A stretch of 64,000 nucleotides of DNA from Candidatus Gastranaerophilales bacterium (GCA_028277625.1 JANQFW010000056.1:8536-72535), one strand, 5' to 3'; shown: positions 2,986-45,783, counted from the first letter of the stretch. Translations and numbers: made by a program. The notes: generated from the letters alone by a model not told the origin.

Positions 2986-3093
2986 AGTTTGTATAGCTAA
3001 TAGAATAAAAACATCAAATCAAAAAAATTGACCCGATAAAATAAAAAAATTTTTGATTTAATTTTAGGAATAACATAAATACAAATACTAGCC

Positions 3094-5880: not shown

Positions 5881-6040
5881 TGATCCATCTCCTTAGTGGT
5901 TTAGCCAATAATTATACTATAATTATACAATCAAGCATGCCCAATTGTAAAAGTAAAATAGTAAAATAGGTAATAAAAATAAATTATCTAAGTAATCATG
6001 ATATATTTTCATTAGAAGATAGATTTTAGGGGTTTGAGAT

Positions 6041-7921
6041 ATGAGTATAACTTCAAAACAATTTTTAGCATTACTTTTCACCACTTTAATTATCACCGGT
6101 TCGCTATACTGCGCTTCTCCACTAGAGGCAAGGGTTTCAGGTAAAATTTATAGTGCAAAAATTTCAAGAAATTATTCAGTAATACAAAACTTAATAAGAA
6201 GAAAAAAATATAAAGCCGCAGAGCAAAAAGCTTTAAAAATCTTAAAAGATAGACCGTATGACGAGCGCGCAAGGCTTTATTTAGGGCAAATCTACTTGGA
6301 TCAATACAAGCTAGATGCTGCAAAAAGAGAATTTAAAAGAGTTTTGTCAAAAAATCCTAACAGTGCGACTGCCCACAACGGCTTAGGAGAAGTTTATTAC
6401 AAAAGAACAGCTTCATCCGATATGGAAGTAAGAAGAAACATTGATAAATACTATAAAGATGCCTTTAAAGAATTTAAAAACGCACTAGAATTAGCACCGA
6501 ACTATTATCCGGCATATTATAATATTGCAAAAGTTTTTCTAAAACTAAAGAGTTATGAAGAAGCGGAATATTATTATGATAGAGCTTTAGAATTAGAACC
6601 CGGAAGTTCAAAAGCCTTGGATGGTCTTGGAGAAGTCGATCTTGCATATGGCAGAACAGATGAAGCTATAGAAAAGTTCAAAAAAGCAATCTCCAGAAAC
6701 TCAAAAAACTCAAGAGCACACTACAACCTAGGTAAAGCTTTAATTAAAAAAGATCAATACAGCCAAGCAATAAAATCCTTGAACACATCACTATATTTGT
6801 TTTCAAATAGCGCACCAGTCCACAACATGCTCGGTCGTGCGTACGAACTACAAGGCAATGAGACAGCAGCAATCAATCAATACAAAAAAGCTACGCTAAT
6901 CAAGCCTGAATATACTGATGCATACATGAATCTTTCTAATATTTACCAGAGAAGAGGAGACGGCGAGCTTGCGATTGCCCAGTTAAAAAGTTTAATAAAG
7001 CTAATGCCTGAGTTTATAGAAGGCAAGCTAAAAGTAGCAGAACTATCACTCAAAAACAACAAGCTTGACCAAGCCATTGACTACTACAATGATGCATTGC
7101 GCTCACCTCAATACACAGCTGTTGCACTAAACGGTTTGTCTAATGCGTATTTTAAAAAAGCGCAAAATGCTAAAGTTTACAATGATTTAGCCTCAGATGT
7201 AGATTATTTAGATGTAGAAGTCTTAATAAAGCAAGCAATTAACTACACTCCAGATAATATGCAGCTTTATTTAGCTTTGCTAAAAATCTCCAGGCTAAAC
7301 AATAATGATAGAGATGCTGGCATATATTTAAATAAAATCCTTACAAGCTCTTCGTATAAGCCTATATCCAATGTTATCAAAGGCGAAGCGCACCTAAGCT
7401 TTAAAAATTATAAAAAAGCTCAAAAGCACTTTGATATTGCGGTTAATCAAATATCAAATACTAGCGATTTGCTAAAAATAAGCGAGATTCTAATATCAAA
7501 CAGAGCTTATCCATCAGCCAAAATGGCATGTCAAAAGATATTAAACAAAGATCCTGACAATACATTGGCTTTAAAATATTTAGAAAAGCTTAGAAGTAAT
7601 GAACACAAAGCTATACTAAAATTTAATAAGGCAAAAGCTTTTTATGACGAAGGCCAAAAAATAGCATCAATAGACACTCTAAGGCAGAGTCTTGATTTAA
7701 ATCCTTATAGTCTTGATGCTCAGTTGTTAATAGCAAAAGCTTATGAGAAAAAGCGATTTTACTTTAATGCACTGGAGCATTACAATGCTTATTTAGACTT
7801 AGTCCCTTATAATGCTACAAGCCGAAATGGCAAGTATATTAAAAAAGTAAACAGGCTAAAAAGAAAGATACAAAAAGCTCAAATGAAAAATAAAAAGCTT
7901 AAAAAATACACAGAATTATAA
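6041..7921 (+). CDS. tetratricopeptide-repeat protein with an N-terminal signal/anchor
   Basis: Many TPR-like units (A...Y..AL.L.P....A...LG..Y) run through 626 aa, after a hydrophobic N-terminus. Confidence 0.8.
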   Translation: MSITSKQFLALLFTTLIITGSLYCASPLEARVSGKIYSAKISRNYSVIQNLIRRKKYKAAEQKALKILKDRPYDERARLYLGQIYLDQYKLDAAKREFKRVLSKNPNSATAHNGLGEVYYKRTASSDMEVRRNIDKYYKDAFKEFKNALELAPNYYPAYYNIAKVFLKLKSYEEAEYYYDRALELEPGSSKALDGLGEVDLAYGRTDEAIEKFKKAISRNSKNSRAHYNLGKALIKKDQYSQAIKSLNTSLYLFSNSAPVHNMLGRAYELQGNETAAINQYKKATLIKPEYTDAYMNLSNIYQRRGDGELAIAQLKSLIKLMPEFIEGKLKVAELSLKNNKLDQAIDYYNDALRSPQYTAVALNGLSNAYFKKAQNAKVYNDLASDVDYLDVEVLIKQAINYTPDNMQLYLALLKISRLNNNDRDAGIYLNKILTSSSYKPISNVIKGEAHLSFKNYKKAQKHFDIAVNQISNTSDLLKISEILISNRAYPSAKMACQKILNKDPDNTLALKYLEKLRSNEHKAILKFNKAKAFYDEGQKIASIDTLRQSLDLNPYSLDAQLLIAKAYEKKRFYFNALEHYNAYLDLVPYNATSRNGKYIKKVNRLKRKIQKAQMKNKKLKKYTEL

Positions 7922-30890: not shown

Positions 30891-32153
30891 ATGAAACTTT
30901 TAAAAACAAGCTTTTTATCTGGCATTTCGACCTTAATAAAGATATTAAGCGGATTTATAGTAAACAAACTTGTGGCTGTATATATAGGCCCTTCCGGTTT
31001 AGCGATGATCGGACAATTTCAAAATTTAATACAAATAATTTTAACTTTTGCCAACGGAGCAATAGATAAAGGTGTAGTAAAATACATTGCAGAATATCAG
31101 GAACAGCCTGACCAAAGAAGAAAGGTTATATCTAATTCTTTTTTGATCAGTGTAGTGTGTGCTTTTGTGATGTCTGCTATTCTCTTTATTTTTAATAAAG
31201 AATTCTCTATTTATTTCTTAAAGGATATTCAGTATAGTAGCGTATTTGTAATATTTGCTTTTACAATAATATTATTTGCTTTAAATAGCCTGTTTTTAGC
31301 TATATTAAATGGTTATAAAGAAATAAAAAAGTTTATTATAGTAAATATAGTTTCCAGTATAGTAACGTTAATATTTGTTTCTTTACTGGTTGTATATTTA
31401 AAATTATACGGTGCGCTGTTGGCGCTGGCGACCTCGCAAGCTGTGGTATTCTTTTTTACTATATTTTTTGTAGTTAAATCCAGTTGGTTTGACATTAAAA
31501 ACTTTTTTGCTAAAGTTGATAAAGTTATTATGTTAAAATTGGGCAAATATTCATTAATGGCACTTACTACAGCACTAACAATACCACTTGCTCAAATAAT
31601 CGTAAGAGATTTTATCACTACGACTATTTCGGCAGATGCTGCCGGATTTTGGCAAGGTGTTTATAAAATATCAGATGTTTATTTGATGGTAATAACAACT
31701 TCTTTAAGTATTTATTACTTACCAAGGCTTTCTGAAATAAAAGATAACAACGAACTAAGAAAAGAAATTTTGCAAACATACAAAATAGTAATGCCGATTG
31801 TAACAGTTTTGGCTGTTGCTATATGGATATTTAAAGGCTTTATAATACAAGTTCTTTTTACTGAAGAATTTATGCCAATGAAAAGTCTTTTTATGTACCA
31901 GCTTATTGGTGATGTTTTTAAAGTTGGAGCCTGGCTACTGGCATTTATAATGGTTGCAAAAGCAATGACCCGTTATTATATAGCAATGGAAATTATTTTT
32001 AGTATTATTTATGTTATTTCTTCGATTGCGTTTATAAATAATTATGGGTTGATCGGCTCGACTATGTCATTTGCATTTACATATATGCTATCTTTCTTTG
32101 CTTTAATTTATATTTTTAGAAAAATTATATTGCTTCCTAAAAATACGGCTTAG
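30891..32153 (+). CDS. polysaccharide (O-antigen/ECA-type) flippase, WzxE-like
   Basis: The N-terminus KTSFLSGISTLIKILSGFIVNKLVAVYIGPSGLAMIGQFQN resembles WzxE. About 12 TM segments. Confidence 0.7.
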   Translation: MKLLKTSFLSGISTLIKILSGFIVNKLVAVYIGPSGLAMIGQFQNLIQIILTFANGAIDKGVVKYIAEYQEQPDQRRKVISNSFLISVVCAFVMSAILFIFNKEFSIYFLKDIQYSSVFVIFAFTIILFALNSLFLAILNGYKEIKKFIIVNIVSSIVTLIFVSLLVVYLKLYGALLALATSQAVVFFFTIFFVVKSSWFDIKNFFAKVDKVIMLKLGKYSLMALTTALTIPLAQIIVRDFITTTISADAAGFWQGVYKISDVYLMVITTSLSIYYLPRLSEIKDNNELRKEILQTYKIVMPIVTVLAVAIWIFKGFIIQVLFTEEFMPMKSLFMYQLIGDVFKVGAWLLAFIMVAKAMTRYYIAMEIIFSIIYVISSIAFINNYGLIGSTMSFAFTYMLSFFALIYIFRKIILLPKNTA

Positions 32154-32236
32154 CAACCTTCTGATTTATTAAGCAATAAAAATTTCTAAATTTATAAAGA
32201 AACAATCTACAATAGTAAAATCGCAGGAGTGTAAAT

Positions 32237-32788
32237 ATGTCAAGATTTTATGAGGGAAACAGAATAAACTTAAGAGAGGCAGAAGTCAGTGATGCGGAAC
32301 TTATTCTAGAGTTAAGACTTAATCAAGACTTAACCAGATTTTTAAATAAATTAGATAATGACTTGGCAAAGCAAAGAAAGTATATACTTGATCATCAAAA
32401 TAAAGGTGAGGATATTTATTTTATTGTTGAGGGTAAGGATAAAGAGCGGTATGGAACAGCTCGAATTCATGATGTCACAGAAGATAGTTTTAAGTGTGGC
32501 AGCTGGATACTAAAGCCTGGCATCCCAAGCTATGTAGCTTTAGAAAGTTATTTTACTTGCTTTGACTATGCATTTATTGAACTGAACAAAAGACACTGTA
32601 AGCTTGATGTTGTAAAAGGCAATCTTAGTGTTATTAATTTACATAAAAAAATGGGGGCTAAGTTAGTAAATGAAGATAATGAAATGCTTTACTTCTACTT
32701 TTCTCGAGATGTCTATCTTGATTCCAGAAAAAAATATCCTAAATATGCATTAAATAGGAACTCGCGAATAAAGCAAGTGCTTAAATAA
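32237..32788 (+). CDS. GNAT-family N-acetyltransferase (paralog of 30189..30743)
   Basis: MSRFYEGNRINLREAEVSDAE... aligns end to end with the other GNAT. Confidence 0.6.
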   Translation: MSRFYEGNRINLREAEVSDAELILELRLNQDLTRFLNKLDNDLAKQRKYILDHQNKGEDIYFIVEGKDKERYGTARIHDVTEDSFKCGSWILKPGIPSYVALESYFTCFDYAFIELNKRHCKLDVVKGNLSVINLHKKMGAKLVNEDNEMLYFYFSRDVYLDSRKKYPKYALNRNSRIKQVLK

Positions 32789-32824
32789 ACTTTAAAAGTA
32801 TTTTTAAGTTAGCATAAATTCTCT

Positions 32825-33454
32825 TTATAAATCTTTGTTTCCAGATTCTTCTGTCAATTCTTTAGTTACAACTTTGTCAAGAATGCCATACTCTTTTGCT
32901 TGGTTTGCGGTCATGAAAAAGTCTCTTTCTGTGTCTTCCTCAATTTTGCTTAGCTCTTGTCCAGTCATTTCGGCCATTATTTCGTTCATTTGTTTTTTTA
33001 TTCGCTCTATTTCATTAGCTTCGATCATTATGTCTGTAGCTTGGCCTCTTGCGCCGCCAGAAGGCTGGTGTATCATAATTCTTGCATTTGGTAGAGCCAT
33101 ACGCTTGCCCGGAGTGCCGGCTGCTAATAAAAATGCTCCCATACTACAAGCTTCACCAAGACAAATAGTATTAATATCGGCTCTAATATGTTTCATTGTG
33201 TCATATATTGCCATACCTGCAGTAATATAACCGCCGGGACTGTTAATATATAGCATTATATCTTTTTCAGGGTTTTCGGCATCTAGCAGCAGCAGTTGTG
33301 CAACTATAGAGTTGCCTACTTCATCATCAATAGGTGTGCCTAAAAATATAATACGTTCTCTTAAAAGCCTTGAAAGTATATCAAAGGATCTTTCACCCCT
33401 GCTAGATTGCTCTATTACTGTTGGGACATAACTTAAAATGGTATTGATATCCAT
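32825..33454 (-). CDS. clpP: ATP-dependent Clp protease proteolytic subunit
   Basis: [27 protein letters not shown]...INSPGG...[14 protein letters not shown]...IMIHQP matches ClpP over its full length. Confidence 0.92.
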
Positions 33455-33906
33455 AATTTATAACCTCTCAAACGGAATACTTTATACTGCATATTGCTTC
33501 TTTATAGAGTACTATATTTATTATTATATTGCAAAATGTTAAGAAAATTAAATTTTTTTTATTTAATAATTTAAAATATTTTTGTGTTTGATTTCTTATT
33601 TGAAGGTATTGTGTATATTTAAATTAAGTATTATTAAGGTTTCGTTTGCATTATATTGACACTTGGTTAATATTATGAAATAATTTGAATATACAAATTG
33701 TATATTAATTAATATTTTAAAAAAACTTTTTTGTATTAAGTATAAAAATTTCTAGTAGTAGCACATTGAATTCTGTTATTGTAGATAAATTTGATAATTT
33801 TAGCAGAAGAAAATAGTATTATATTTAAAAATTGAGCTTTAATTAATTGATGATGCTCAATTAGTTAGCAATGCAGATATTTTAGTGGTATAAGTTTTTG
33901 AGGTGG

Positions 33907-34059
33907 CTTAGATCACGTCATTAAATTGGGGGGTGAGGTTTGAGCTGTTTGTTATAGTATTGGATTATCCCTAAACTCAATTATAGCAGCATAATAACTG
34001 TCGACCAAGTTGATAAATAAAAATTTAAATGGATCTAATAGTGTTAATAGGAGAAATAT
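33907..34059 (+). promoter_or_regulatory. conserved 5' leader of pilin-FReD operon 1
   Basis: About 153 nt immediately upstream of the ATG align by eye at high identity with 38972-39126. The segment ends in TAATAGTGTTAATAGGAGA.ATATATG. Confidence 0.6.
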
Positions 34060-35529
34060 ATGAGTGTAAATTTAAAATTTCTAAAATCTAAGCCGCGCTC
34101 CGGGTTTACATTAGCAGAAATGCTTACTACGTTAATTGTTATATCCATCATTGTAGCTGTTACAATGCCTGTTTTTACAATGAGAAAAAGTTCTGAAGCT
34201 AGAATTGATACTGAAGCTCAGGCATGTGTGGAGCAACACGGTGGTGACTCAACCAAGCCTGCTTGCGCAGGAGCTATTGATCGATGTAAAAGAAATGTAA
34301 TGAATACTTGCGGTACTTTAGATCGATATATAAATTATGACGATGGAACTGATGATAATGAATTATCTGCCTTAAAAATACTTAGAGATACTTGCGAAGA
34401 AGGTGGAAAAAATGCTTGTGATACTTTTCTTGAAAGATGTATAACGAATCCAAACCTTTGTGATTTACCTAAAGTTTCGGGAGCCTTAAGCCCTGAACAT
34501 GACATGGACTTGCAGTATTTTCTTAAGCAACCGGTTGAATCTTCAAACTTAGGAACAATCTATATATATGAGCAAGTGGATAATTATTATAGGCAGGGTG
34601 TTGAGCAGATTCAAGAAGCTGTAAGAAATAGTTGTATTAACGGCGGAGATGCCGGTTGTGCGCTACTAGTTAATTATTGCAAAGAAGAAAAAGAAGTGGA
34701 TGCATGCAAAGCTTTGATAGCAGGCTGTGATAATGAGCATAAAACTGCTTGCAGGCATGGTTATATTAACAATTTAAATAGATCTTGCCTTGAAATTAAA
34801 AATGCATTAAATACGGATGAGAGTAAACCTTATGGTTTAAGCTATGATGTAGAGGGTACTAATGCTAAGGCTTATTGCGATATGACAACTGATGGTGGTG
34901 GATGGACCTTGGTAATAAAGGCTCATGGCAGTTCGGATAATTTTGATTTTAACTCTCTGCTTTGGACAAGCGATGAGGTGCTAAATCCTGATGAACTTGA
35001 CTTAACTAGAACGAGTTACCCCGATGATGAGCATAAAAACCTTGCGTTTTCTTATGTTCCATTTGATCATATTAAGCTAGTGTTCTATTCGCTAACAAAG
35101 GATCCTAATGCAGAGTTTGTCAATTTAGATATAAGCGGAAATAATTTAAAAAGCTTATTTCAAGGTGGAAATATGAATACAACCGTGGGCGTAGACAAAT
35201 GGGCAAAGTTGGTGGTTTCTACCTCTGGAGGTTGGTCATTACAAAAAAATTGTCGCAGAGAAGGCTTAAATGCTATGGATGATATTGCAAAACATGCTCG
35301 TGTAAGAATTGGAATAATTGGAAATCAAGAAAGTGATTGCCATACTCCTGATAGTTATATAGGCCTGGGCGGTACTTATGACCATTGGAGTTACAATAAG
35401 CCGGTAAGCGTAGGTAATTATTGTGATAGAAGGTATTGGTGCTATTATCGCAAGGATGCAGATCAACCTATCAAGCAAGATGACATTGGAAAAAACAATG
35501 CAGCTTTTGCATTTTTGTACATTAAGTAA
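34060..35529 (+). CDS. prepilin-type N-terminus / Cys-paired helical stalk / fibrinogen-C-like domain protein (type A)
   Basis: KPRSG|FTLAEMLTTLIVISIIVAV (class III signal with Glu+5). Paired-Cys repeats. RSCLEIKN...AYCDMTTDGGGWTLVIKAHGSSDNF. The C-terminus is FAFLYIK. Confidence 0.85.
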   Translation: MSVNLKFLKSKPRSGFTLAEMLTTLIVISIIVAVTMPVFTMRKSSEARIDTEAQACVEQHGGDSTKPACAGAIDRCKRNVMNTCGTLDRYINYDDGTDDNELSALKILRDTCEEGGKNACDTFLERCITNPNLCDLPKVSGALSPEHDMDLQYFLKQPVESSNLGTIYIYEQVDNYYRQGVEQIQEAVRNSCINGGDAGCALLVNYCKEEKEVDACKALIAGCDNEHKTACRHGYINNLNRSCLEIKNALNTDESKPYGLSYDVEGTNAKAYCDMTTDGGGWTLVIKAHGSSDNFDFNSLLWTSDEVLNPDELDLTRTSYPDDEHKNLAFSYVPFDHIKLVFYSLTKDPNAEFVNLDISGNNLKSLFQGGNMNTTVGVDKWAKLVVSTSGGWSLQKNCRREGLNAMDDIAKHARVRIGIIGNQESDCHTPDSYIGLGGTYDHWSYNKPVSVGNYCDRRYWCYYRKDADQPIKQDDIGKNNAAFAFLYIK

Positions 35530-35584
35530 GAGAAATCTGGAATTAAATTGATGGGCAGTATTATAATAATAAGGATAAAATAAA

Positions 35585-37126
35585 ATGAAACAAAGAAAAG
35601 GTTTTACTCTAGTTGAAGGACTATTTTTATTATTATTGACAAGCGTTGTTTTGGCTTTGACCATTCCTGTGATTACGCAGTTATCTGCAACAAAGTCGAA
35701 TATGGATAATTATGCGGTAGATTGTATTGAAAATAGGTCATCTAAGTCTTGTGATGCGGCACGCAGGGGAGCTTTGTATGAGCGGGAAAAAAGTATTAAT
35801 ACTTTATATAGATATGTAAGTGATGGTACTGAAAAACAAATAACAAAAGCTCTAAAAGAGTTGAATCAGGCTTGTTTGGAAGGATCTACAAGCGCCTGTG
35901 ATTTGTTTATCGATAGATGTGTCCAAGATGAAAAAGTTTGTGACATACCTTCCGGTGAAAATAAAAATTATGACCTGAGAGCTTTATTAGAAATGGACTA
36001 TAACACAAATAATCAAACTAATGAGAGCTATAATACCGGAAGAATTTATTTGGCAAAAGCAATAACCTCGCGCTGTAATCAAAGGGTCAAAAATATTTTA
36101 AAGATAACGCGTGAGACTTGCTTAAATGCTAAAGACAATAATAATGACAATATTATCGCGTGTAATATAGATAATAGAAATTGTCTGGAAGATTCGAATG
36201 AAGCTATTGTTGATGGTTGTAATGACGGGAATGAGGACTATTGCAAATTAGGCTATGAAAGAAATATTAATAGGACTTGTTCTCAGATATACAATGCTTT
36301 ACCTTCATATTTAGATGGCACTTATTCCTTATCTAAGAACGATAGTGGAGATTCTTATAGGGCGTATTGTGATATGGATGGTGGAGGATGGACTTTATTA
36401 CTTAAAGTTGACGGTAGTTTATCAACCTTTAGATATGATAGTGATATGTGGACAAATACCACTGAGCATAAAAATTCAGAAACAAACCTTGATCATACTG
36501 AGCATAAAAGTACAGCGTTTGCGCATGTGCCTTATAAACAAATTAAATTAAGAATGGTAACTCCGGTGGATAGCTGCTCAGGCATTACATCCTGCCATGG
36601 CAGTACAAAAGTTACTTGTATAACTTCTTGTAAGTATAATAAAGGATTTAATAGTTCAGCTGTTACAACAGATTTAATATTTAGTAAAAAAAATAAATCT
36701 GCTTTAGAGATGTTTTCTACAAATGAGTTTTTTGAGCTGGATTTGATAAGATCATATAAGGGGTATGACGATGATAAGTTTATGCTCACAACCATGCCTA
36801 ATGGTCAATTGGAAAGTGCTTATTTTGAATTTGGCATAAATTCGCAGTCGTCGCTGTATGATTGTGATGGTCAAAAGTTTACATCTGCGAGGATTGGAAT
36901 AATAGCTTCCGGTAAGAAAAAAACCGGTGGCCCGAATTGTACTGTAGAAGGCTTGCCTAGCATAAAAAACGGCAGTTTTGACAGATGTGAGAGATGTAAA
37001 AATAATGAGTTTAGCAGTGCTATTGGAATAGGCTTGTATAATTCCGGCTCTGATATGACTGCCGGCAATTATTATTCTAAAGACCCTAATAAGAAGCCCT
37101 CGTTTGCTTATTTATTTGTTAAATAA
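35585..37126 (+). CDS. prepilin-type / Cys-stalk / fibrinogen-C-like protein (type B)
   Basis: MKQRKG|FTLVEGLFLLLL. NRTCSQIYN...AYCDMDGGGWTLLLKVDGS. A Cys-rich insert. The C-terminus is FAYLFVK. Confidence 0.85.
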   Translation: MKQRKGFTLVEGLFLLLLTSVVLALTIPVITQLSATKSNMDNYAVDCIENRSSKSCDAARRGALYEREKSINTLYRYVSDGTEKQITKALKELNQACLEGSTSACDLFIDRCVQDEKVCDIPSGENKNYDLRALLEMDYNTNNQTNESYNTGRIYLAKAITSRCNQRVKNILKITRETCLNAKDNNNDNIIACNIDNRNCLEDSNEAIVDGCNDGNEDYCKLGYERNINRTCSQIYNALPSYLDGTYSLSKNDSGDSYRAYCDMDGGGWTLLLKVDGSLSTFRYDSDMWTNTTEHKNSETNLDHTEHKSTAFAHVPYKQIKLRMVTPVDSCSGITSCHGSTKVTCITSCKYNKGFNSSAVTTDLIFSKKNKSALEMFSTNEFFELDLIRSYKGYDDDKFMLTTMPNGQLESAYFEFGINSQSSLYDCDGQKFTSARIGIIASGKKKTGGPNCTVEGLPSIKNGSFDRCERCKNNEFSSAIGIGLYNSGSDMTAGNYYSKDPNKKPSFAYLFVK

Positions 37127-37145
37127 TAGAAAGTGAAAGTAAAAA

Positions 37146-38636
37146 ATGAAGTATTATAAAAATAAAGGTTTTACTCTTGCTGAATTTTTAGTTGTTTTAG
37201 CAGTTATAAGCATAATTCTTATTGCTTCTAAGCCTATAATGACAGTAAGAAAAAATATGCAAAATTTTGATATAGATGCTGTTAGTTGTTTAAAAAGTGA
37301 ATTTTTTGAGCCTGAATCTGAGGCTTGTGAGCAATCTATTGAAAAATGTAGATTTAATAGTGGAAAAGCCTGTGACACTATTAAATATGTTGCAGATCAT
37401 GGTAGAGCTTCAGAGCAAAATACTGCAAGACAAGTATTAAGGGGGATATGTGATCAAGGTGGAGAGGAAGCTTGTAAATATTTTGTGGATAGCTGTATAA
37501 AGGATTCCGACAGCTGTGATCTAAACAAGAGTGATAATGATCTGAATTTTTACTTGTTACAGCCTGCAAAAAGTAAAAATCTAGGCAGGATAAAAGTGAA
37601 AAAATATGCAAATACATATTTGTTACAAGGTCTTAATACGCTTACAAGTGAAGTACAAGCAGCCTGTAGCGCAGGCGGAGATACTGCTTGCATTATGTTA
37701 GCTGAGCAGTGTAAAACTAATTCTCATTGGGACTCTTGTAGAATATTGTTGGACAATTGTACCGGTGGCTCTGAAATGGCCTGTAAGCAAGGTTATATGT
37801 ACAATATGAATAAAAGTTGTAAAACTATACGTGACACATTCAATCCCCATAAGGAAACCAGTGCAGCTCAGATTTCAAAGCTTGAAATGCCGGCATCGGG
37901 AATATTTATGATTACACCAATGGGTTGGGAGTCAAGATCAAAAGATATTAGTGCCAGTAAAAAGCCTTTTAGAGTTTATTGCAATATGGAATTGGATGAT
38001 GACCCGGATGATAATGAACCGCCTGGGGGTTGGACACTTGTAATGAAGCAAAAAAAAGGTGATGGAACTACTTTGCGAGGTGACAAAGATATTTGGACAG
38101 CTTCTGACCTCAAGAACTTTTCCAGCGATTATTATCTTGATGATAAAGTTGAGTTTATGAATGTAGACAAGGATAAGCATCAGAATTTTGTATCAAGAGG
38201 TTTTAGGTTAGTGCCTGTTGAGTATAAATTATTATTAGCTGCATCAAATGAAAGTACATATTGGACGCATGACGCGCAGGGGGCTAGTGCTCAGCAGCTC
38301 TTTGCTATTCCAAAAAAAATGAGCGAGCCTGCAAATAATCTAAGACCAGACTGGTTTATCGGTAGCTCTGTAGATCCTAAAACCAGATTTCCTGATGGTA
38401 CTACTATTATTAGGTCGGCAAGCAAGGATTTCAATCATCAACAGGTGTTTAGGTCTGATGTAAGCTGTGGTGTACGTTGGGGCTGGACGGCAAATGATAT
38501 GACAAGTAATAGACAAAGAGGCTCTCATAAGGCATGTGGAGGACTAGGTGCTTATGGTGAAGAATATGGGGGTAGAAAAATGGGTAATGCAGAGGGAGCC
38601 TGGCAGCCGGCTGACCTTTATCTTTATGTAAAATAA
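37146..38636 (+). CDS. prepilin-type / Cys-stalk / fibrinogen-C-like protein (type C)
   Basis: MKYYKNKG|FTLAEFLVVLAV. KSCKTIRD...SGIFMITP...PFRVYCNMELDDDPDDNEPPGGWTLVMKQKKGDG. The C-terminus is LYLYVK. Confidence 0.85.
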   Translation: MKYYKNKGFTLAEFLVVLAVISIILIASKPIMTVRKNMQNFDIDAVSCLKSEFFEPESEACEQSIEKCRFNSGKACDTIKYVADHGRASEQNTARQVLRGICDQGGEEACKYFVDSCIKDSDSCDLNKSDNDLNFYLLQPAKSKNLGRIKVKKYANTYLLQGLNTLTSEVQAACSAGGDTACIMLAEQCKTNSHWDSCRILLDNCTGGSEMACKQGYMYNMNKSCKTIRDTFNPHKETSAAQISKLEMPASGIFMITPMGWESRSKDISASKKPFRVYCNMELDDDPDDNEPPGGWTLVMKQKKGDGTTLRGDKDIWTASDLKNFSSDYYLDDKVEFMNVDKDKHQNFVSRGFRLVPVEYKLLLAASNESTYWTHDAQGASAQQLFAIPKKMSEPANNLRPDWFIGSSVDPKTRFPDGTTIIRSASKDFNHQQVFRSDVSCGVRWGWTANDMTSNRQRGSHKACGGLGAYGEEYGGRKMGNAEGAWQPADLYLYVK

Positions 38637-38654
38637 TAAATTTTAGCTTGATAA

Positions 38655-38698
38655 TAAAAACTCCTTGCTTTAACTATTTGAAGGTGGGGAGTTTTTTG
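38655..38698 (+). terminator. rho-independent terminator of operon 1
   Basis: AAAACTCC(TT)...(AAGGTG)GGGAGTTTT followed by TTGTTG. Confidence 0.6.
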
Positions 38699-38971
38699 TT
38701 GTTTATTTTTTTACAATACTAGCGCAACATAATTTAAAACTTTACAAACTATTACTTTATAATGCATTTTGCTTCTTTATGGTGTATTATGTTTATTATA
38801 ATATTATAAATTTTTATGAAAATTAATTTCTTGATAAATATTTTTTGTATATATTTTGTATGTTTAACTTGCTTAAATTTTCTCAATATTATTGATATAT
38901 CTCGAAAAGCTTAATTTGAAACTCAATAAATCAACAATATAAATAATTGGTAGTATTAGTACTTGATATAA

Positions 38972-39126
38972 CTTAGACTATGTCATAAAATTGTGGGGTG
39001 AGGTTTTAGCTATTTGTTACAGTATGGGATTATGCCCCTAAAAAACATCTTAGCTGCACAATAAATATCGACTAATTTTATTAGAAAAATTTTAAATGCA
39101 TTTAATAGTGTTAATAGGAGACATAT
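38972..39126 (+). promoter_or_regulatory. conserved 5' leader of pilin-FReD operon 2
   Basis: This is the counterpart of 33907-34059. Confidence 0.6.
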
Positions 39127-40530
39127 ATGAAGATAAATATTAAACTGCCAAGACTTAAACCTTACCGAGGATTTACACTTGCAGAGTCGTTTGTTGTAAT
39201 GGCTATTGTATCTGTTTTGATTATTGTTTCGATGCCGGCACTAACTACACGTAAGGCAACAAAGGTAAGGGTTGATAACATAACGCAAGAATGCATTATA
39301 AATCAAAATGGAAAATTATCTTCTGATGCTTGCAAAGCTGCAATAGAGAGGTGTAAGCTTGATAAAGGAAATAGCTGCAATACATTAATGCGTTATGTTG
39401 CTAATGATGATAAGGACAACTCCACTAATAAAAAGAATGCTTTAAAAATCCTTAAAGACGTTTGTGAGGATGGTGGACTTCAGGCATGCGATGTGTTTAT
39501 TGATAGGTGTATTGCTGATTATGATAATTGTAATATAGATAAAAAAAATTCGTTAGCTAAACTCGATTTGAATTATTTTTTAAGCCTTCCATCAAATGAT
39601 TCTAACTCCGGTAGGTTATATCTTATAAAGCAAGTTGAAGACTTGTATAAACAAAATATTGAAAATATCAGGAAAACACTAATTTCTAGCTGTAAGAAAG
39701 AAAACTCTGACCAAAGCTGTGAATTGCTGGCCGGTTTTTGTACGGAAATTGCAGATAAAGAATCTTGTGAGGCTATTATTGATGGATGTAATATGCAACT
39801 TGATCTTGATGAAGATGCAGGTAAATCAAATGCTTGCAAGTATGCATATATAAATGATTTTAATAGAAGTTGTTTACAAATTAAAAATTTGATCGATACC
39901 AAGGAAAGCAAAGAATATAGCTTAACATACAATGAAGATGGTGATTTTTACGGTGCATACTGCGATATGGATGGAGGGTGGACGCTTGCTTTAAAAGTGC
40001 TTGGTAATAACACTCAATTTACTTATGGTTCTAAGTTTTGGACTAACGAACTCTCCTTTAATCCTGAATCCACTAACTTATTTATAGCAAATCATAAGAG
40101 TCAAGCTTTTAATTATGTTCCTTTTAACTTTGTCAAAGTCGTATTTCGTACCCCTATCAATGACTCTAAAGATAGAGTGTTAACAATACCGGTTAATCAG
40201 CCAAGCTTAAAAGATCTTTTTGCCGGCAACTACAATCAGACAAACATGACGATTGACCATTGGAAAGATTTGATTGACTCATCAGATGATTCTTTGGAAT
40301 CGAATTGCAATAAGCAGGGATTTAATACACAAGGAGGTAATTTGAATTTTGCACAATGTAGAATAGGCATAATATCAAGTACTGCTGCAAATTGTGATCA
40401 ACCTAGCAGCTATATTGGAGTTGGCTGTAAATATCCCTTGGAATCCGGTTCTCCGGTAGCCGGAAACTTTCCGGACTCAGCAGAATCGGATTTGGTTCAA
40501 TCCTCTTTTGTTTATATTTATATAAAGTAA
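39127..40530 (+). CDS. prepilin-type / Cys-stalk / fibrinogen-C-like protein (type A')
   Basis: KPYRG|FTLAESFVVMAIV. NRSCLQIKN...AYCDMDGGWTLALKVLGN. The C-terminus is FVYIYIK. Confidence 0.85.
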   Translation: MKINIKLPRLKPYRGFTLAESFVVMAIVSVLIIVSMPALTTRKATKVRVDNITQECIINQNGKLSSDACKAAIERCKLDKGNSCNTLMRYVANDDKDNSTNKKNALKILKDVCEDGGLQACDVFIDRCIADYDNCNIDKKNSLAKLDLNYFLSLPSNDSNSGRLYLIKQVEDLYKQNIENIRKTLISSCKKENSDQSCELLAGFCTEIADKESCEAIIDGCNMQLDLDEDAGKSNACKYAYINDFNRSCLQIKNLIDTKESKEYSLTYNEDGDFYGAYCDMDGGWTLALKVLGNNTQFTYGSKFWTNELSFNPESTNLFIANHKSQAFNYVPFNFVKVVFRTPINDSKDRVLTIPVNQPSLKDLFAGNYNQTNMTIDHWKDLIDSSDDSLESNCNKQGFNTQGGNLNFAQCRIGIISSTAANCDQPSSYIGVGCKYPLESGSPVAGNFPDSAESDLVQSSFVYIYIK

Positions 40531-40593
40531 ACTATATTGACCACTACCAACTATAGAACTAAAAAAAATTATGATAATTTGGAGCTGTATAAA

Positions 40594-42171
40594 ATGAATA
40601 AAAATAAAGCTGGTTTTTCTTTAGCGGAAGTTTTGTTTCTTATATTAATTGTAGGTATTTCAGTTACTATTTTAATGCCTATTTTTACACAAGTAAAAGA
40701 GTCTTCTGGTGTTAGCGATATTTCACGAGACTGTATTCTTACTGATAAGGGCGATACGTCTAAAAAAACGTGTATAGGGGTAATTGATTCGATCAGAGCG
40801 GGTCAAAAATCTAAATACAATACTCTTTTATATTTTGTAGATAAAGGAGAGCCTCAATCTAAGTATGCAACAGGAGTTCTTTATGAAGCATGTGTCCAAG
40901 GCGCCGGGCTAGCTTGTGATTATTTTTTGGACAAGTGTGCTAATGGATCGTGTGGCAATTTTAGATCCCTTATCTCACAAGATTATCACCCCACAACAAC
41001 AAAAGGCGATAGTTACAAAAATCGTCTGGTTCAAGGTGTTACATATCTGAAAGAGCGTATTGAAAGATATTGTAAAAAAAATATGGAAGAGGTTGTAGCT
41101 GAAATTTTAAAGACGTGCAAAAAAAAAGGCAAAGATTCTTTGGCATGTCATATAGATGAATATAAATGCTCATCAGATGATGTTAACTTTATTATCGATC
41201 GATGTAATGAAGGTAGTGACATGTACTGCAAGTTGGGCTATGAAAAAGAGTACAATCGAACTTGTAAGCAAATTAAAAATGTATATGATTCCCCTAAAAA
41301 TGGAAAGTATAGGTTAACCTACGGAATAAATAAAGGCCAGCACTATGAAGCTTATTGTGTTATGAATGATGACTTGGATATTGATACAGGTAATACAGGT
41401 GGGTGGACTCTTGCTCTAAAAGCTGATGGCAATAGCTCGATATTTCAATATAAGTCACATTATTGGGAAAACACAAATGATTTTCAAAGAAATGAAGTTA
41501 ATTTAGATCAAACAGAACATAAGAGCTTAGCCTTTACAAATGTTCCTTTTGATCAAATAACGCTTAGGCTTGTAACAGAAACAACAGCTAAAACTTGTAA
41601 AAAGTATAAATCTTGTAGCTCAACAGCCGGTGTTAAGTGTAAACTTAATAAAAAAGTAACAGGCAAGAACTGTGCAATGACAACAACAATCCGGTTTAGT
41701 TTGCCTAAAGATAATAGTTTGCCTGATGCCAGTACCTACCCTGAAGCTTATAATTCTTTATTAAGTTTATTTTCTGGAGGATTTTATTCAATTGCTGATG
41801 ATAGAAAATTTTGGTTAAATGTTGTTCCAGGCTCTAAACTTGATAAAGTTCATTATAGTATAGGTATAAATGCAATGACAGATAATATTGATGAGGCAGA
41901 ATGTGACCTTGCGGCTGTTAGAATAGGAGTAGCTGCTGCAGGAAAGAAAAATGATAATAAAGAATGTAAGGATAAATGGATCTATGATCCTAAGACAGGC
42001 ATTTTTACCGTTCATGAGAATACTAAAAAAGATGGTGCGTGCGCTTGTGCGTTTAATAATATTATGAGTTTTACCGGGATAGGAGGTTTTAGTAATGAAA
42101 CTGACTTAACTGCCGGAAATTATTACAGAGAAAAAGATATACGCTCATTTGGATACATTTTTGTAAGATAG
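40594..42171 (+). CDS. prepilin-type / Cys-stalk / fibrinogen-C-like protein (type B')
   Basis: The ORF track starts at 40537. The in-frame ATG at 40594 has GGAG 9 nt upstream and gives the family-typical short leader MNKNKAG|FSLAEVLFLILIV. NRTCKQIKN...AYCVMNDDLDIDTGNTGGWTLALKADGN. The C-terminus is FGYIFVR. Confidence 0.8.
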   Translation: MNKNKAGFSLAEVLFLILIVGISVTILMPIFTQVKESSGVSDISRDCILTDKGDTSKKTCIGVIDSIRAGQKSKYNTLLYFVDKGEPQSKYATGVLYEACVQGAGLACDYFLDKCANGSCGNFRSLISQDYHPTTTKGDSYKNRLVQGVTYLKERIERYCKKNMEEVVAEILKTCKKKGKDSLACHIDEYKCSSDDVNFIIDRCNEGSDMYCKLGYEKEYNRTCKQIKNVYDSPKNGKYRLTYGINKGQHYEAYCVMNDDLDIDTGNTGGWTLALKADGNSSIFQYKSHYWENTNDFQRNEVNLDQTEHKSLAFTNVPFDQITLRLVTETTAKTCKKYKSCSSTAGVKCKLNKKVTGKNCAMTTTIRFSLPKDNSLPDASTYPEAYNSLLSLFSGGFYSIADDRKFWLNVVPGSKLDKVHYSIGINAMTDNIDEAECDLAAVRIGVAAAGKKNDNKECKDKWIYDPKTGIFTVHENTKKDGACACAFNNIMSFTGIGGFSNETDLTAGNYYREKDIRSFGYIFVR

Positions 42172-42238
42172 AAATCAAAAACACTTTAATATGACTCAGA
42201 GAAATTTTGATAGTCATAATATTTTGGAGACAATAATA

Positions 42239-43711
42239 ATGATAAAAAAATGCGGTTTTACTCTAGCAGAGTTTTTAGTCGTTTTAGCGGTTACATCGGT
42301 TCTTTTAATGGCGGTTATGCCAGTTGTAACAATAAGAAAAAAAATTGATAAGTATGATTTAGATGCTATTTCGTGCATAAGGTCTGAAAATGCTTCTAAT
42401 TTAGAATCAAAAGCTTGCCGGGATTTGATTGATAAGTGCAAATCAAATGCAGGTAACTCTTGCGATACAATGTTTTATTTTGCAAAGCACGGAAAAGACA
42501 AAGACAAGGCTGCATCAAGAAAAGTACTGAGAAAGTTATGTGATGGTGGTGCAGCAGTAGCTTGTCAATATTTTATAGATTCCTGCAAAAAAGATTCTTC
42601 TCAATGTGATATAGGTGGGACTGATGATGAGAGCGATTTGCGATTTTACCTTAATTTAGAAAATAATTCTGATAATATTGGAAGATTAAAAATAAAAGAT
42701 GGGATCAAATCTTATTACTTTGCAGGTAATCCCAATATTCTAAAAGAAGTTGCAGATGCTTGTAAAAATGAAGGTGAAACGGCATGTATGGTTTTTATCG
42801 AAGCGTGCACTATAAAAAAGGATCTTGGAGCTTGTAAGACTTTAATAGATAGTTGTACAGACGGATCTAGTGTTGCTTGTAAGCTTGGGCATGATTATAA
42901 CTTGAATAAAACATGTAAGTCTATTAGAGATATCTTTAATCCAAATAGGTTAGCAGTTATTCCAAATCCGCCAGCTACCGGAATATATAAGATAACCCCT
43001 GTTGGTTGGAATACAAAAGATGGTGATACTGAAAATGATCCGTTTAAAGTTTATTGTAATATGACTTTGGATGATGATCCAAATGACAGCGAGCCTGCCG
43101 GTGGCTGGACTCTTGTGATGAAGCAAAAAAAAGGTGATGGTGAGACACTGCAAGGGGACAATAAGTACTGGACAAACGCTGATTTACTTCTTAAAAATGC
43201 TGTTTTGAATGACAAAGAAAGCTATATGAATGTGGATGATAATAATTTTATATCTCGTGGGTTTAGGACTGTTCCCGTTACTTCAATGCTTTTGCTAGAT
43301 GCTGCAAATGAAGACACTCATTGGACGCATGAGACAGTAAGTCCAAGTGCATTTCAAGCATTTGGTACACCACTTATTTTAACTGAAGGTCCTAATTCAT
43401 TGAGACCTAATTGGTTTGTACATGCAAAGAACATGCCTTGTGATCCTGATAGCTCAGAAGAATGTGAGCGCTATTATGAACTTGGCTCTGCTTGTAATGT
43501 ATTTAATCATGAACAGCATTTTCAAGGATCACCAGATCCTCACTGTGCTGTTAGATGGGGTTGGACAGCTGACAATAAATACAATACACAACCCGGCTCG
43601 CACAATACTTGTGGAGGCCTTGGAGCGTATGGAATAAGGTATGGCAAGTCATTAATGAGTAAGAATAAAGGAATTTGGCAGCCTGATACCCTTTACTTAT
43701 ATGTAAAATAA
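42239..43711 (+). CDS. prepilin-type / Cys-stalk / fibrinogen-C-like protein (type C')
   Basis: The ORF track starts at 42191. The in-frame ATG at 42239 has GGAGA 8 nt upstream and gives MIKKCG|FTLAEFLVVLAV. PFKVYCNMTLDDDPNDSEPAGGWTLVMKQKKGDG. The C-terminus is LYLYVK. Confidence 0.8.
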   Translation: MIKKCGFTLAEFLVVLAVTSVLLMAVMPVVTIRKKIDKYDLDAISCIRSENASNLESKACRDLIDKCKSNAGNSCDTMFYFAKHGKDKDKAASRKVLRKLCDGGAAVACQYFIDSCKKDSSQCDIGGTDDESDLRFYLNLENNSDNIGRLKIKDGIKSYYFAGNPNILKEVADACKNEGETACMVFIEACTIKKDLGACKTLIDSCTDGSSVACKLGHDYNLNKTCKSIRDIFNPNRLAVIPNPPATGIYKITPVGWNTKDGDTENDPFKVYCNMTLDDDPNDSEPAGGWTLVMKQKKGDGETLQGDNKYWTNADLLLKNAVLNDKESYMNVDDNNFISRGFRTVPVTSMLLLDAANEDTHWTHETVSPSAFQAFGTPLILTEGPNSLRPNWFVHAKNMPCDPDSSEECERYYELGSACNVFNHEQHFQGSPDPHCAVRWGWTADNKYNTQPGSHNTCGGLGAYGIRYGKSLMSKNKGIWQPDTLYLYVK

Positions 43712-43731
43712 TAAATACATTGCAATAATTA

Positions 43732-43775
43732 AACCTCCTAGTTTTTAAGATTTAAAGCTAGGAGGTTTTGCTTTT
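43732..43775. terminator. convergent (bidirectional) hairpin between operon 2 and 43758..45293
   Basis: AACCTCCTAG-loop-CTAGGAGGTT followed by TTGCTTTT. The 3' arm overlaps the stop codon of the minus-strand gene. Confidence 0.65.
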
Positions 43776-45293
43776 ATTATTCATTTTGTTCGTAAAATAT
43801 TTGTTAAACCAAGGAATACCTATACCTAACATTAAGCAAGAATAAATAATACCTATTGCGCTAGCAATATTAAGCTTTTTTATATTTTTGGAAACATCAA
43901 TACCAGATTTTCTTATTTCTTCGTGAGATTTAACAGAGGTACCTGAAATAAAATGTTTAATTTTTTTGATAAAGCCGGCATTTTTAGGCAATGTTGCAGT
44001 TTGATTTAACAGTTCAAATTTGTTTTTTCTAGCCATTAAAGAAGCTGTTCCTTTTGTAACAACACCTCCCAGAACTAGCCAGTTTAAAAATCCGCTAACA
44101 TCTCTAATACTTGTTTCCCTAAGCTCATTTTGATCAGCAGATGCAGCCATTCTGCCCAGAACTGTAATTCCGAAGATAGTTTGTAATTGCTTTTGTGATA
44201 GCAGAGGGCTATTAAATTGCAGTTTAGAGCCTAGTTCTTTCAAATTATTTGGGTTGAGCATTTTAACGGAATTTTTTCCACTGATAATGCTTAATAATAA
44301 TAAGCCAAATCCACCTATACTAAGACCTTTTTGTATAGTGAGATTTCTTTTTTCTTTAGATGATAAGTTCTTATTTTCAAAACTGCAGCTCATATTTCCT
44401 ACAAAGCCTTTTTTACCGGTTCTGCATTCTGTTATATATCGGTTTGTAAATTGGGTGAAAAAACCAATGCTTGAACATAAGCTAAGCGCAATGGCAGCTT
44501 TTGCGGTGTTTGCTGTTTTAATTTCTGCCAAGCTGTTGTTTAAAAACTTTTCCTCTGAAAAACGACTTCTAGCTGCTTTTTGAAACACGTGTTTGCAGGC
44601 ATCGTGAGTATCTTTTATTAGCTTTTTAGCGCTTGTTGAGTTTTTTTCATTTTTTATACTAACTACTAGGTTTTTATCAGTTTTTAGTGCCTTTACAAGA
44701 TTTTTCTCAGCTTGTTTTAATAATATTTTTGCTTTTTTAGAATTAGACTCTTGAATAGCATCTGCTAAAAAGCCAGTGGCCTTGTTTAAATTTTCTTTTG
44801 ATGACTGATTTAGATTTCCTTTTTTGAGTCCGTAATAAGTTTTTCCATTTAATCCTTCTGTATTAGCTAGTACATTATTAACATAATTTTTAACTTTGCT
44901 TGGGCTTTCGTTGTTTGTAGATAGCCAGGCGTTTTTTAGTAATTTAAAAGAGTTTGAGTTTATCCATAAATTGTTTTTTACACCAAGAGCTAGCATTCCT
45001 ACTGTACTTGCAATTATTGATGGTAGCACTGTTACATTGAATAACCCAAAGCTTTCTCTTATCACTACTTCATTGCGTGCATCCTTGCTTCTTGTGGAAG
45101 CAATAACTGTTCTTGGAACAATCATAGAGCCTATGTCTTGAAATGCAACATTTGCGGCAAAATTGTTATTTGTCAACTCCATTGCTTTTGTTAGTACTGA
45201 CGCATTGCCAAACTTGATATCGCTTTTGCTATTTTTAGGTTTTTTTACTTTAGATATAGTTTGTTTTAAATCGTTAATTTCCATTTTGCGCAA
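43758..45293 (-). CDS. hypothetical membrane protein
   Basis: ORF track (511 aa) with several hydrophobic segments. No family was recognised. Confidence 0.6.
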   Translation of the reverse strand: MRKMEINDLKQTISKVKKPKNSKSDIKFGNASVLTKAMELTNNNFAANVAFQDIGSMIVPRTVIASTRSKDARNEVVIRESFGLFNVTVLPSIIASTVGMLALGVKNNLWINSNSFKLLKNAWLSTNNESPSKVKNYVNNVLANTEGLNGKTYYGLKKGNLNQSSKENLNKATGFLADAIQESNSKKAKILLKQAEKNLVKALKTDKNLVVSIKNEKNSTSAKKLIKDTHDACKHVFQKAARSRFSEEKFLNNSLAEIKTANTAKAAIALSLCSSIGFFTQFTNRYITECRTGKKGFVGNMSCSFENKNLSSKEKRNLTIQKGLSIGGFGLLLLSIISGKNSVKMLNPNNLKELGSKLQFNSPLLSQKQLQTIFGITVLGRMAASADQNELRETSIRDVSGFLNWLVLGGVVTKGTASLMARKNKFELLNQTATLPKNAGFIKKIKHFISGTSVKSHEEIRKSGIDVSKNIKKLNIASAIGIIYSCLMLGIGIPWFNKYFTNKMNNKSKTS

Positions 45294-45320
45294 ACCTCTA
45301 GGTGAATTATAAGGTGAATT

Positions 45321-45366
45321 TAAAATGCAAAAACCGCAAGCTGCTTTGTATGTTTTGCTTGCGGTT
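45321..45366 (-). terminator. rho-independent terminator (minus strand) upstream of 45293
   Basis: Minus strand AACCGCAAGC-loop-GCUUGCGGUU followed by UUUGCAUUUU. Confidence 0.65.
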
Positions 45367-45396
45367 GATATTTTAGCTTTTATTTAGATAGTTTTA

Positions 45397-45507
45397 CTAT
45401 TTAAACTTATTACAAAATCGCAAGCAACAAAATTGGGCGGCCTTTTGTGCGGTGGCTGCCTGTTGTTGTTGCTGTTGTGCATTAAGTTTTGAAGTAAAAC
45501 TAAGCAT
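45397..45507 (-). CDS. candidate 36-aa ORF MLSFTSKLNAQQQQQQAATAQKAAQFCCLRFCNKFK
   Basis: Hand-translated and below the ORF-track cutoff. A GC-rich patch sits in the AT-rich spacer, and a terminator hairpin lies ~30 nt downstream. The SD is weak. Confidence 0.25.
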   Translation of the reverse strand: MLSFTSKLNAQQQQQQAATAQKAAQFCCLRFCNKFK

Positions 45508-45783
45508 ATTAAATTATTTTTCTTTCTGTATTATTTTTATTAAATTAAAAATTTAGTTAAATAATAATAAAACCAAAAATTATTAAATGTCAATACTTAT
45601 TTTTATAAAATTATTTGGATAATAAATTTATAATAAATGATGCTAAAATTATAATTATTAAGATTTGTTACAATTGCCTAAAATAAATTGACAATTCGGG
45701 TTTTGTTTTTGTTAGTCTTGAATCAAGTAGGAACTTCGAAGTTTTATATGTGATTATTTTATTATTTAAGATAGAGGAAAATT

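Follow-up and report, generated by a model that had tools for sequence, protein, structure and literature searches.

Predicted pilin-lectin operons in tandem in a Candidatus Gastranaerophilales bacterium: a conserved leader core and a non-coding frame younger than its genes

The window analyzed here is a 64,000-nt stretch of DNA from a metagenome-assembled genome (MAG) of a Candidatus Gastranaerophilales bacterium (GCA_028277625.1, JANQFW010000056.1:8536-72535). It contains two operons in tandem, each with a long leader, three genes, and a strong terminator, and the six genes encode predicted modular pilin-like proteins with a lectin-type head. An initial annotation, made from the sequence, had noticed that the leaders of the two operons look better conserved than their genes and had taken this as a sign of a functional RNA leader. 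Here we show the anatomy of the locus, the conservation of its leaders, and a discordance in age, in that the non-coding frame of the second operon is younger than the genes that it carries. We also identify in the leader an 87-nt core and a 27-nt ribosome-binding-site (RBS) module that are apparently under purifying selection. At a probability of roughly one half, we propose that the contrast between non-coding and coding sequence has these two causes: a constrained core and RBS module, and a young frame carrying an old three-gene cassette.

Layout of the locus

Unit 1 (33452-38724) and unit 2 (38725-~43787) lie head to tail in a GC-poor window (~33%), and a gene scan of the window places housekeeping genes on the flanks of the two-unit region. 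Six + strand open reading frames (ORFs) of 467-525 amino acids (aa), all of them paralogues, make up the two operons. Unit 1 comprises gene A (34060..35529), gene B (35585..37126), and gene C (37146..38636), followed by a + strand terminator at 38650..38703 (dG -19.3 kcal/mol, z -4.65) with a U run after it. Unit 2 comprises A' (39127..40530; 36-39% identity to A), B' (40594..42171), and C' (42239..43711; protein P0004, beginning MIKKCGFTLAE), and it likewise ends in a + strand terminator, at 43731..43768 (dG -22.2, z -5.7), a hairpin with a U run as in unit 1. The start of B' was set at MNKNKAGFSLAE, in agreement with the gene call in L010, and the longest ORF opens at 40537; B' and C' probably begin at 40594 and 42239, respectively.

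The initial annotation had described a head-to-tail duplication of a ~5-kb unit of leader, three genes, and terminator, and this duplication is real: blastn matches, the terminators, and the junction agree. The units are colinear, and the junction joins the 3' end of one to the 5' end of the next: after terminator 1, the remnant of the clpP ATG and of its upstream region occupies 38725-38875. Over 33522-45546, 12 kb across both units, a separately built Logan assembly shows no difference from the window, and the tandem layout is thus found in more than one assembly. The pairing of A with A', B with B', and C with C' is upheld by BLASTP identities of 36% (E 4e-111), 34%, and 48%, compared with 24-38% for the cross pairs; the same values bear out the earlier remark that A and A' agree at well under half of their positions and that C and C' are more similar.

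For comparison we used two further Candidatus Gastranaerophilales MAGs, L001 and L004, which hold the closest relatives of the genes. Each carries a single A-B-C operon in the same neighborhood, and the one terminator of L001 is orthologous to that of unit 2. In gene trees, the unit 1 genes and their orthologues in L001 and L004 form clades from which A', B', and C' are each excluded, and a search of 5.8 billion proteins returned no closer homologue of A'B'C'.

The genes 5' of the operon differ among the three genomes: a flippase, an acetyltransferase, and clpP in the window (30891-33454), a radical-SAM gene and clpP in L001 (4380-6325), and a flippase and an acetyltransferase without clpP in L004 (4363-6315). 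Because of these differences we regard the locus as a rearrangement hot spot. On the 3' side, a 511-aa ORF at 43758-45293 (- strand) is convergent on unit 2 and overlaps terminator 2 with its 3' end; it has no Pfam or NCBIfam match, and its counterpart in L001 is a 516-aa gene.

Family members were also seen elsewhere. In L007, two adjacent C-type genes (3001-4437 and 4469-5905) are 98% identical and thus represent a very recent tandem gene duplication. The first family gene of L007 is frame-shifted between its ATG (232) and GFSLAE (232-300), across nine T at 252-260, which might reflect an error of assembly or a tract prone to slippage. L011 contains a distant single-gene relative (pilin plus fibrinogen-like domain) that adjoins flagellar export genes, and its 400-nt upstream region is full of CATG(G/A)A repeats (7700-7900), a different kind of leader.

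Predicted protein architecture

All six proteins carry the prepilin-type motif GF(T/S)L(A/V)E at the N terminus, followed by a hydrophobic helix, and TIGR02532 or PF07963 matches at or above cut-off in A (TIGR02532 only), C, and C'. The fibrinogen-like GGGWT domain (GGGWT_bact, NCBIfam NF040941; cut-off 30 bits) scores 45.5 bits in A and 38.8 bits in B, and the remaining four proteins align to it below the cut-off. In an AlphaFold2 (AF2) model of A (predicted local distance difference test score, pLDDT, 86.7; predicted template modeling score, pTM, 0.80), an N-terminal helix spans residues 18-45, residues 51-236 are Cys-rich and helical, and residues 243-489 form a beta-rich domain. With this model, Foldseek ranks Xenopus XEEL and human intelectin-1 first (E 3e-6 to 1e-5), followed by lamprey serum lectin, FIBCD1, and ficolins, and a profile search of PDB sequences returns the same lectin chains together with the N termini of PilA and Geopilin.

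Based on the prepilin motif, the GGGWT domain, and the AF2 and Foldseek matches, A and its paralogues, B and C among them, are predicted to be modular type IV pilin-like proteins in which a prepilin N terminus with a class III signal peptide leads through a Cys-rich helical stalk to a lectin head of the intelectin/fibrinogen-like type. A role as glycan adhesins is plausible for proteins of such a predicted build. No pilus assembly machinery or prepilin peptidase was seen among the scanned ORFs of the window. A literature search found no paper on an architecture combining a pilin with an intelectin-like head, and the locus defines a small, undescribed family of predicted modular pilins in gut Melainabacteria. 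The C-terminal GGGWT domain has many homologues in predatory or episymbiotic bacteria (Bdellovibrio, Myxococcota/Nannocystis, and Minisyncoccus archaeophilus; protein matches P0022-P0119), and the prepilin motif also occurs in one Minisyncoccus GGGWT protein.

Conservation of the leaders

Comparison of the two units with each other confirmed that the leader is better conserved than the genes. The best non-trivial blastn matches are the proximal leader (33843-34118 vs 38911-39185, 73% over 278 nt) and a distal block (33455-33598 vs 38731-38875, 75% over 146 nt). A sliding plot of identity over 100 nt peaks in the proximal leader, the maximum of the 5.3-kb unit (0.71-0.76), and coding DNA lies at 0.4-0.6 except for one peak of 0.75 at 37979-38079, which is due to amino acid conservation and is not a conversion tract. 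Over the ~155 nt directly upstream of A and A' (33907-34059 and 38972-39126), 124/155 positions (80%) are identical, against 0.56 +/- 0.02 in shuffles (maximum 0.63) and 40-60% identity in the genes.

The distal block has a separate explanation. The clpP gene (32825..33454, - strand; Pfam CLP_protease, E 6e-85) is divergent from the pilin-lectin operon, and the original copy of the block (33455..33598, - strand) abuts its ATG and covers the region of the clpP promoter and 5' untranslated region (UTR). L001 has both clpP and the block, which is shared with its clpP upstream region, whereas L004 has neither clpP at this locus nor the block and keeps the rest of the leader. The unit 2 copy (38725..38875, - strand), delimited by three-way alignment, marks the duplication junction: in a minus-strand alignment its homology runs down to a relic ATG at 38725-38727, which sets the boundary between the units. 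The Shine-Dalgarno sequence of this relic, originally GAGAGG, has degenerated to GTAAAG, and the reading frame meets a stop after two codons. The relic matches the upstream region of the window's clpP gene at 80.6% of positions and that of L001 at 64%, and it has lost sites at which the functional orthologues do not differ. Because the block abuts the clpP ATG, has lost its Shine-Dalgarno sequence and reading frame in unit 2, and is absent from the clpP-less L004, it belongs to clpP, and its unit 2 copy is a dead passenger and not a part of the pilin operon leader. The retention of the block between the units, as noted at the outset, is thus genuine (62/76 or 81.6% over the 76 nt originally compared; shuffles 0.60 +/- 0.03, maximum 0.72), but its assignment to the pilin operon is not.

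Three blocks of the leader survive the divergence between orthologous operons: a middle block, the core, and the RBS module. Synonymous divergence (dS) between orthologues is 1.0-1.4 for L001-L004 and 1.0-1.6 for window-L001, and unconstrained leader DNA is only 40-50% identical between them, which is chance level. The core of unit 1 (33884..33970, + strand; 87 nt), which contains the near-invariant run GGGTGAGGTTTGAGCTGTTTGTTATAGTAT and a weak version of the promoter-like site described below, is 79-84% identical to each of the other three leaders. Among orthologous leaders, core identities are 83.5% (window-L001), 80%, and 94% (L001-L004). The core of unit 2 (38949..39036, + strand) is 79% identical to that of unit 1 and 81% to that of L001 (79-81% to the other leaders overall), and a sequence-only model of the core scores 88-94 bits (E about 1e-26 to 1e-28). 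The RBS module of unit 1 (34036..34062, + strand; 27 nt, TAATAGTGTTAATAGGAGAAATATATG) and that of unit 2 (39103..39129, + strand), located by motif search and leader alignment, belong to a set of four with 92-96% identity in every pair, and the motif occurs only twice in the window against 0.04 occurrences expected by chance. Because both elements are kept in orthologous leaders despite a dS of at least 1, the alignments point to real constraint, that is, purifying selection, on the core and the RBS module. The suggestion of a functional 5' leader accordingly stands for ~110 nt, the core plus RBS module kept in two other genomes.

Unit 1 and the orthologues have the middle block (33617..33712, + strand), and it is deleted from unit 2, where the alignment gives no counterpart to it or to its promoter-like site. 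The block holds the best sigma-70-like site of the region, TTGACA-17-TG-AATAAT at 33656-33684, with a consensus score of 11/12; sites scoring 11/12 are also found in L001 (6543-6571) and L004 (6441-6469). Within the core itself, a promoter-like site with a fixed spacing of 17 nt reads TTGATA/TAAAAT in unit 2 (10/12, at 38963-38991), TTGAGA/TAAAAT in L001 (10/12), and TTTAGA/TAAAAT in L004 (9/12). As judged by consensus match, the hexamers, a spacing within 16-18 nt, and a conserved position agree with a sigma-70 promoter. By contrast, the -35/-10 pairs picked out in the initial annotation lie at non-homologous positions (the counterpart of TATAAG at 33889 is TATTAG at 38953 and not TATAAA at 38938) and are not conserved in the relatives. 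On the 3' side of the putative -10 hexamer is a near-invariant 30-nt run, GGGTGAGGTTTKAGCTRTTTGTTAYAGTAT, with laxer conservation extending to ~37 nt. Its first bases, GGGGUGAGG, are a Shine-Dalgarno-like sequence conserved ~130 nt 5' of the ATG and, by eye, complementary to the usual 16S 3' tail.

Several other candidates for the leader were rejected. A leader peptide ORF after the Shine-Dalgarno-like run (UUG-AGC-UAU-UUG-UUA-UAG) is, by eye, lost in unit 2. Promoters of the sigma-54, sigma-28, and SigB/SigF types misfit in spacing or key bases (by eye). An invertible promoter is not indicated either, as inverted repeats in the leader are at chance level for AT-rich DNA; the best of them is 81% matched in L001 and L004 and only 12/21 in the window by hand count.

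The sequence model detected no copy of the core in L007, L011, or L013. At L007 66-76 (+ strand), ~165 nt 5' of the first family gene, the stretch GGGCGAGGTTT escaped this model; beyond the close clade nothing else of the leader core was seen. A metagenome scan for the core motif returned a single, unrelated locus, L015, in which a 27-nt match (62-88, - strand; GGGGTGAGGTTTCAGCTTTTTGTTA) has a HEAT-repeat gene next to it and two GC-rich hairpins ahead of it; it may be due to chance or to a shared short motif.

Age of the frame and selection on the genes

Fourfold-degenerate (4-fold) sites are 0.35 identical between A and A', 0.30 between B and B', and 0.33 between C and C', which equals the expectation from codon usage and means that these sites are saturated. 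Because leader identity of 80% far exceeds 0.30-0.35, neutral retention from a duplication of the same age as the genes is excluded. This settles one half of the refutation proposed for the initial annotation, that leader identity might be no higher than synonymous identity; its other half, gene conversion, remains and is weighed below.

The remaining non-coding parts of the units behave like the leader. The leader linker is colinear and 72% identical between the units and at chance level against L001, and the 3' flank is 78% identical between the units in aligned positions. In L004 the linker has a ~120-nt GC-richer insertion (6735-6850) that contains the hairpin GGTGGTGATGGTCATCACC. Composition-corrected distances, in substitutions per site, are ~0.2 for the clpP relic and ~0.35 for the linker, compared with ~1.0 for 4-fold sites between the window and L001. 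The counts of sites shared by unit 1 and unit 2, by unit 1 and L001, and by unit 2 and L001 are 27:17:26 in the proximal leader and 20:47:31 at 4-fold sites (p = 4e-5), and for gene A as a whole they are 123:411:123. We found no conversion tract in the coding sequence, synonymous codon identity being at baseline in every 40-codon window.

A simple tandem duplication would have left all parts of the unit at the same age. Instead, non-coding sequence is 70-82% identical, 4-fold sites are at chance level, and the unit 2 genes fall outside the orthologue clade. Because the relic, linker, and 3' flank are only 20-30% diverged while synonymous sites are saturated, the non-coding frame of unit 2 is younger than its genes. 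Much of the similarity between the two units outside the core thus appears to reflect the younger common origin of the frame and not constraint.

Gene-wide, the proteins show no sign of the diversifying selection that had been suggested for them. The ratio of nonsynonymous to synonymous divergence (dN/dS) between orthologues is 0.09-0.24 in both halves of all three proteins, which indicates that A, B, and C are under purifying selection gene-wide, as estimated from three sequences.

Interpretation

From these comparisons we infer the following roles and history. The core would most likely be a proximal sigma-70-type promoter, TTGAnA-17-TAAAAT, together with the start of a ~130-nt 5' UTR that opens with GGGGUGAGG, and the RBS module would most likely be the translation-initiation region of the operon. 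Unit 1 and its orthologues may possess an additional strong promoter upstream, in the middle block, that unit 2 would have lost. The tandem junction would have arisen recently in the lineage of the window, after its split from the one-operon relatives, and the coding block of unit 2 would be a deeply diverged allele that recombined into this frame at or near the RBS module and the gene ends.

Several observations weigh against this interpretation. The promoter-like site in the core of unit 1 is weak (TTGAGG-17-TTAAAT) and was not flagged in a promoter scan. The hexamers vary more than the 37 nt that follow the putative -10, which suggests an operator or RNA function beyond that of a plain promoter. 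A local hairpin in the core region of L001 and L004 (z -3.2 in both) is kept in unit 1 (z -0.97) by four changes that all preserve pairing through wobble, as judged by eye, which could mean that transcripts started at the upstream promoter have a role as RNA. The similarity of the linkers could come from lineage-specific constraint. Only four leaders are available, two of them near-identical, so that constraint and shared ancestry are not fully separable. Finally, no donor genome with an A'B'C'-type allele was found, and the import of the cassette is deduced, not observed.

A possible but clearly less probable history is an ancient duplication, before the split of L001/L004, with one unit lost there and with later gene conversion that was seeded by the core and confined to the non-coding parts, the genes being too diverged or kept distinct. 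It would account for the position of A'B'C' outside the orthologue clade and for the star-like pattern of leader sites (27:17:26); the core has identical runs of 12-19 nt that could seed exchange, and the terminator of L001 matches that of unit 2, as after loss by unequal crossover. However, the clpP relic is ~80% identical right up to the junction ATG, with no homology on the far side at which a conversion tract could be resolved, and three separate non-coding segments at a similar 70-80% fit one event better. For these two reasons we prefer a recent junction to an old duplication with conversion. The older history also needs an extra loss event, and under it the core of unit 2 might be expected closer to unit 1 (79%) than to L001 (81%), which it is not.

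A more speculative proposal, to which we give somewhat less weight still, is that the core and RBS module constitute an undescribed cis-regulatory leader of Gastranaerophilales pilin-lectin operons, acting as a 5' stabilizer or as a protein-bound RNA around GGGGUGAGG, and that they also serve as a recombination anchor for the swapping and stacking of three-gene cassettes. If true, leader-anchored swapping would amount to a system for antigenic variation or variation in host-glycan specificity in non-photosynthetic relatives of cyanobacteria.

It is doubtful that the leader works in cis as a structured RNA (a riboswitch, or a leader bound by a small RNA or a protein) selected in both copies of an old duplication while diversifying selection acted on the proteins, a model that goes back to the initial annotation. 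The conservation of the core and RBS module at a dS of at least 1, the near-invariant 37 nt after the putative -10, the complementarity of GGGGUGAGG to the 16S tail, and the hairpin of L001 and L004 with its wobble changes in unit 1 would all be in keeping with such an element. But in unit 2 the same hairpin is broken at 3/12 outer pairs (by eye) and RNAfold predicts none there. Searches for an RNA switch also gave no support. The Rfam 15 covariance scan of the window at gathering score matched only a tRNA, and at E<=10 the interval 33300-39300 gave matches at chance level only (11-17 bits). Whole leaders fold with no excess of stability over shuffles (minimum free energy z +0.17 and +0.31). 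RNAalifold, run from two candidate 5' ends, gave a weak consensus with compensatory changes at 0/26 and 0/14 pairs, a comparison of four sequences and hence of low power. Long-range pairing between the core and the flank of the RBS module, considered as a further candidate, was no better than in shuffles in 3/4 leaders. The attribution of the distal block to clpP and the dN/dS values of 0.09-0.24 argue against the remaining parts of this model.

It is highly improbable that the similarity of the leaders is purely a by-product of recent ancestry, with no function beyond a generic ribosome-binding site; the evidence for a young frame (relic, linker, 3' flank, and site patterns) is compatible with this, but orthologous cores remain 80-94% identical where neutral intergenic DNA is at 40-50% and dS is 1.0-1.6. 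That a metagenome assembler chained two strain alleles of one locus in tandem is hardly credible, even for a window taken from a MAG whose relatives have a single unit, given that the junction joins terminator 1 to a diverged and truncated clpP start and not to an identical repeat, and that, along 12 kb that run across both units, the independent Logan contig does not differ from the window.

On the interpretation that we favor, of a constrained core in a young frame with an old cassette, the locus carries a caution: non-coding sequence that is better conserved than coding sequence between paralogues can reflect separate histories and not only an RNA element. Here a dead copy of the start site of a neighboring gene serves as an internal clock. 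Our findings suggest that the pilin-lectins owe their diversity to the recombination of entire operon cassettes downstream of a promoter and leader that are conserved, and the conserved core provides a concrete target for studies of expression control in an uncultured lineage.

Comparison with known systems

The nearest described kind of protein appears to be the modular minor pilins of Streptococcus sanguinis, in which PilB has a von Willebrand factor A (vWA) module and PilA and PilC form a complex, PilC having a lectin module (PMC8179133, PMC9934059). As in S. sanguinis, an N-terminal pilin module is joined to a large adhesion or glycan-binding module, and several such genes stand side by side. 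In the proteins described here, however, a Cys-rich helical stalk precedes a module of the intelectin/fibrinogen-like type (GGGWT_bact) with a predicted function; the genes form a three-paralogue operon, and there is no pilus machinery nearby in the window.

The C-terminal 240 residues share their predicted fold with intelectins (X-type lectins) and ficolin-type fibrinogen-related domains (PDB 4wmo, 4wmq, 6usc, 7e1e, and 4m7f), which Foldseek matches with a probability of 1.0 and TM scores of 0.42-0.51 on the target. Unlike those lectins, the domain occurs in a bacterial host, is fused to a pilin, and has a sequence identity of 14-17%.

With regard to the leader, the c-di-GMP-II riboswitch lies upstream of the pilA1 operon of Clostridioides difficile. 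Both systems place a long conserved leader before a type IV pilin operon, but the leader described here has no Rfam match, the c-di-GMP classes included, and no stable or covarying fold. In Bacillus thuringiensis, cry3A reportedly has a 5' mRNA stabilizer, STAB-SD, which is ascribed to Agaisse and Lereclus (1996), a paper cited as reference 106 in PMC3997798. The likeness, by sequence alone, consists in a Shine-Dalgarno-like sequence ~125-130 nt 5' of the start codon, a long leader, and a promoter far upstream, although the conserved block described here is much longer than a Shine-Dalgarno sequence.

With regard to the history of the locus, the deeply diverged pilin alleles of Pseudomonas aeruginosa (pilA groups I-V) are exchanged horizontally between conserved flanks. 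Here the alternative allele stands in tandem with the resident one and does not replace it, the cassette is three genes long, and the second allele is known from one genome only. What the two systems would have in common is the presence of very old coding alleles in a far more conserved frame at a fixed locus, an arrangement that implies recombination in the flanks.

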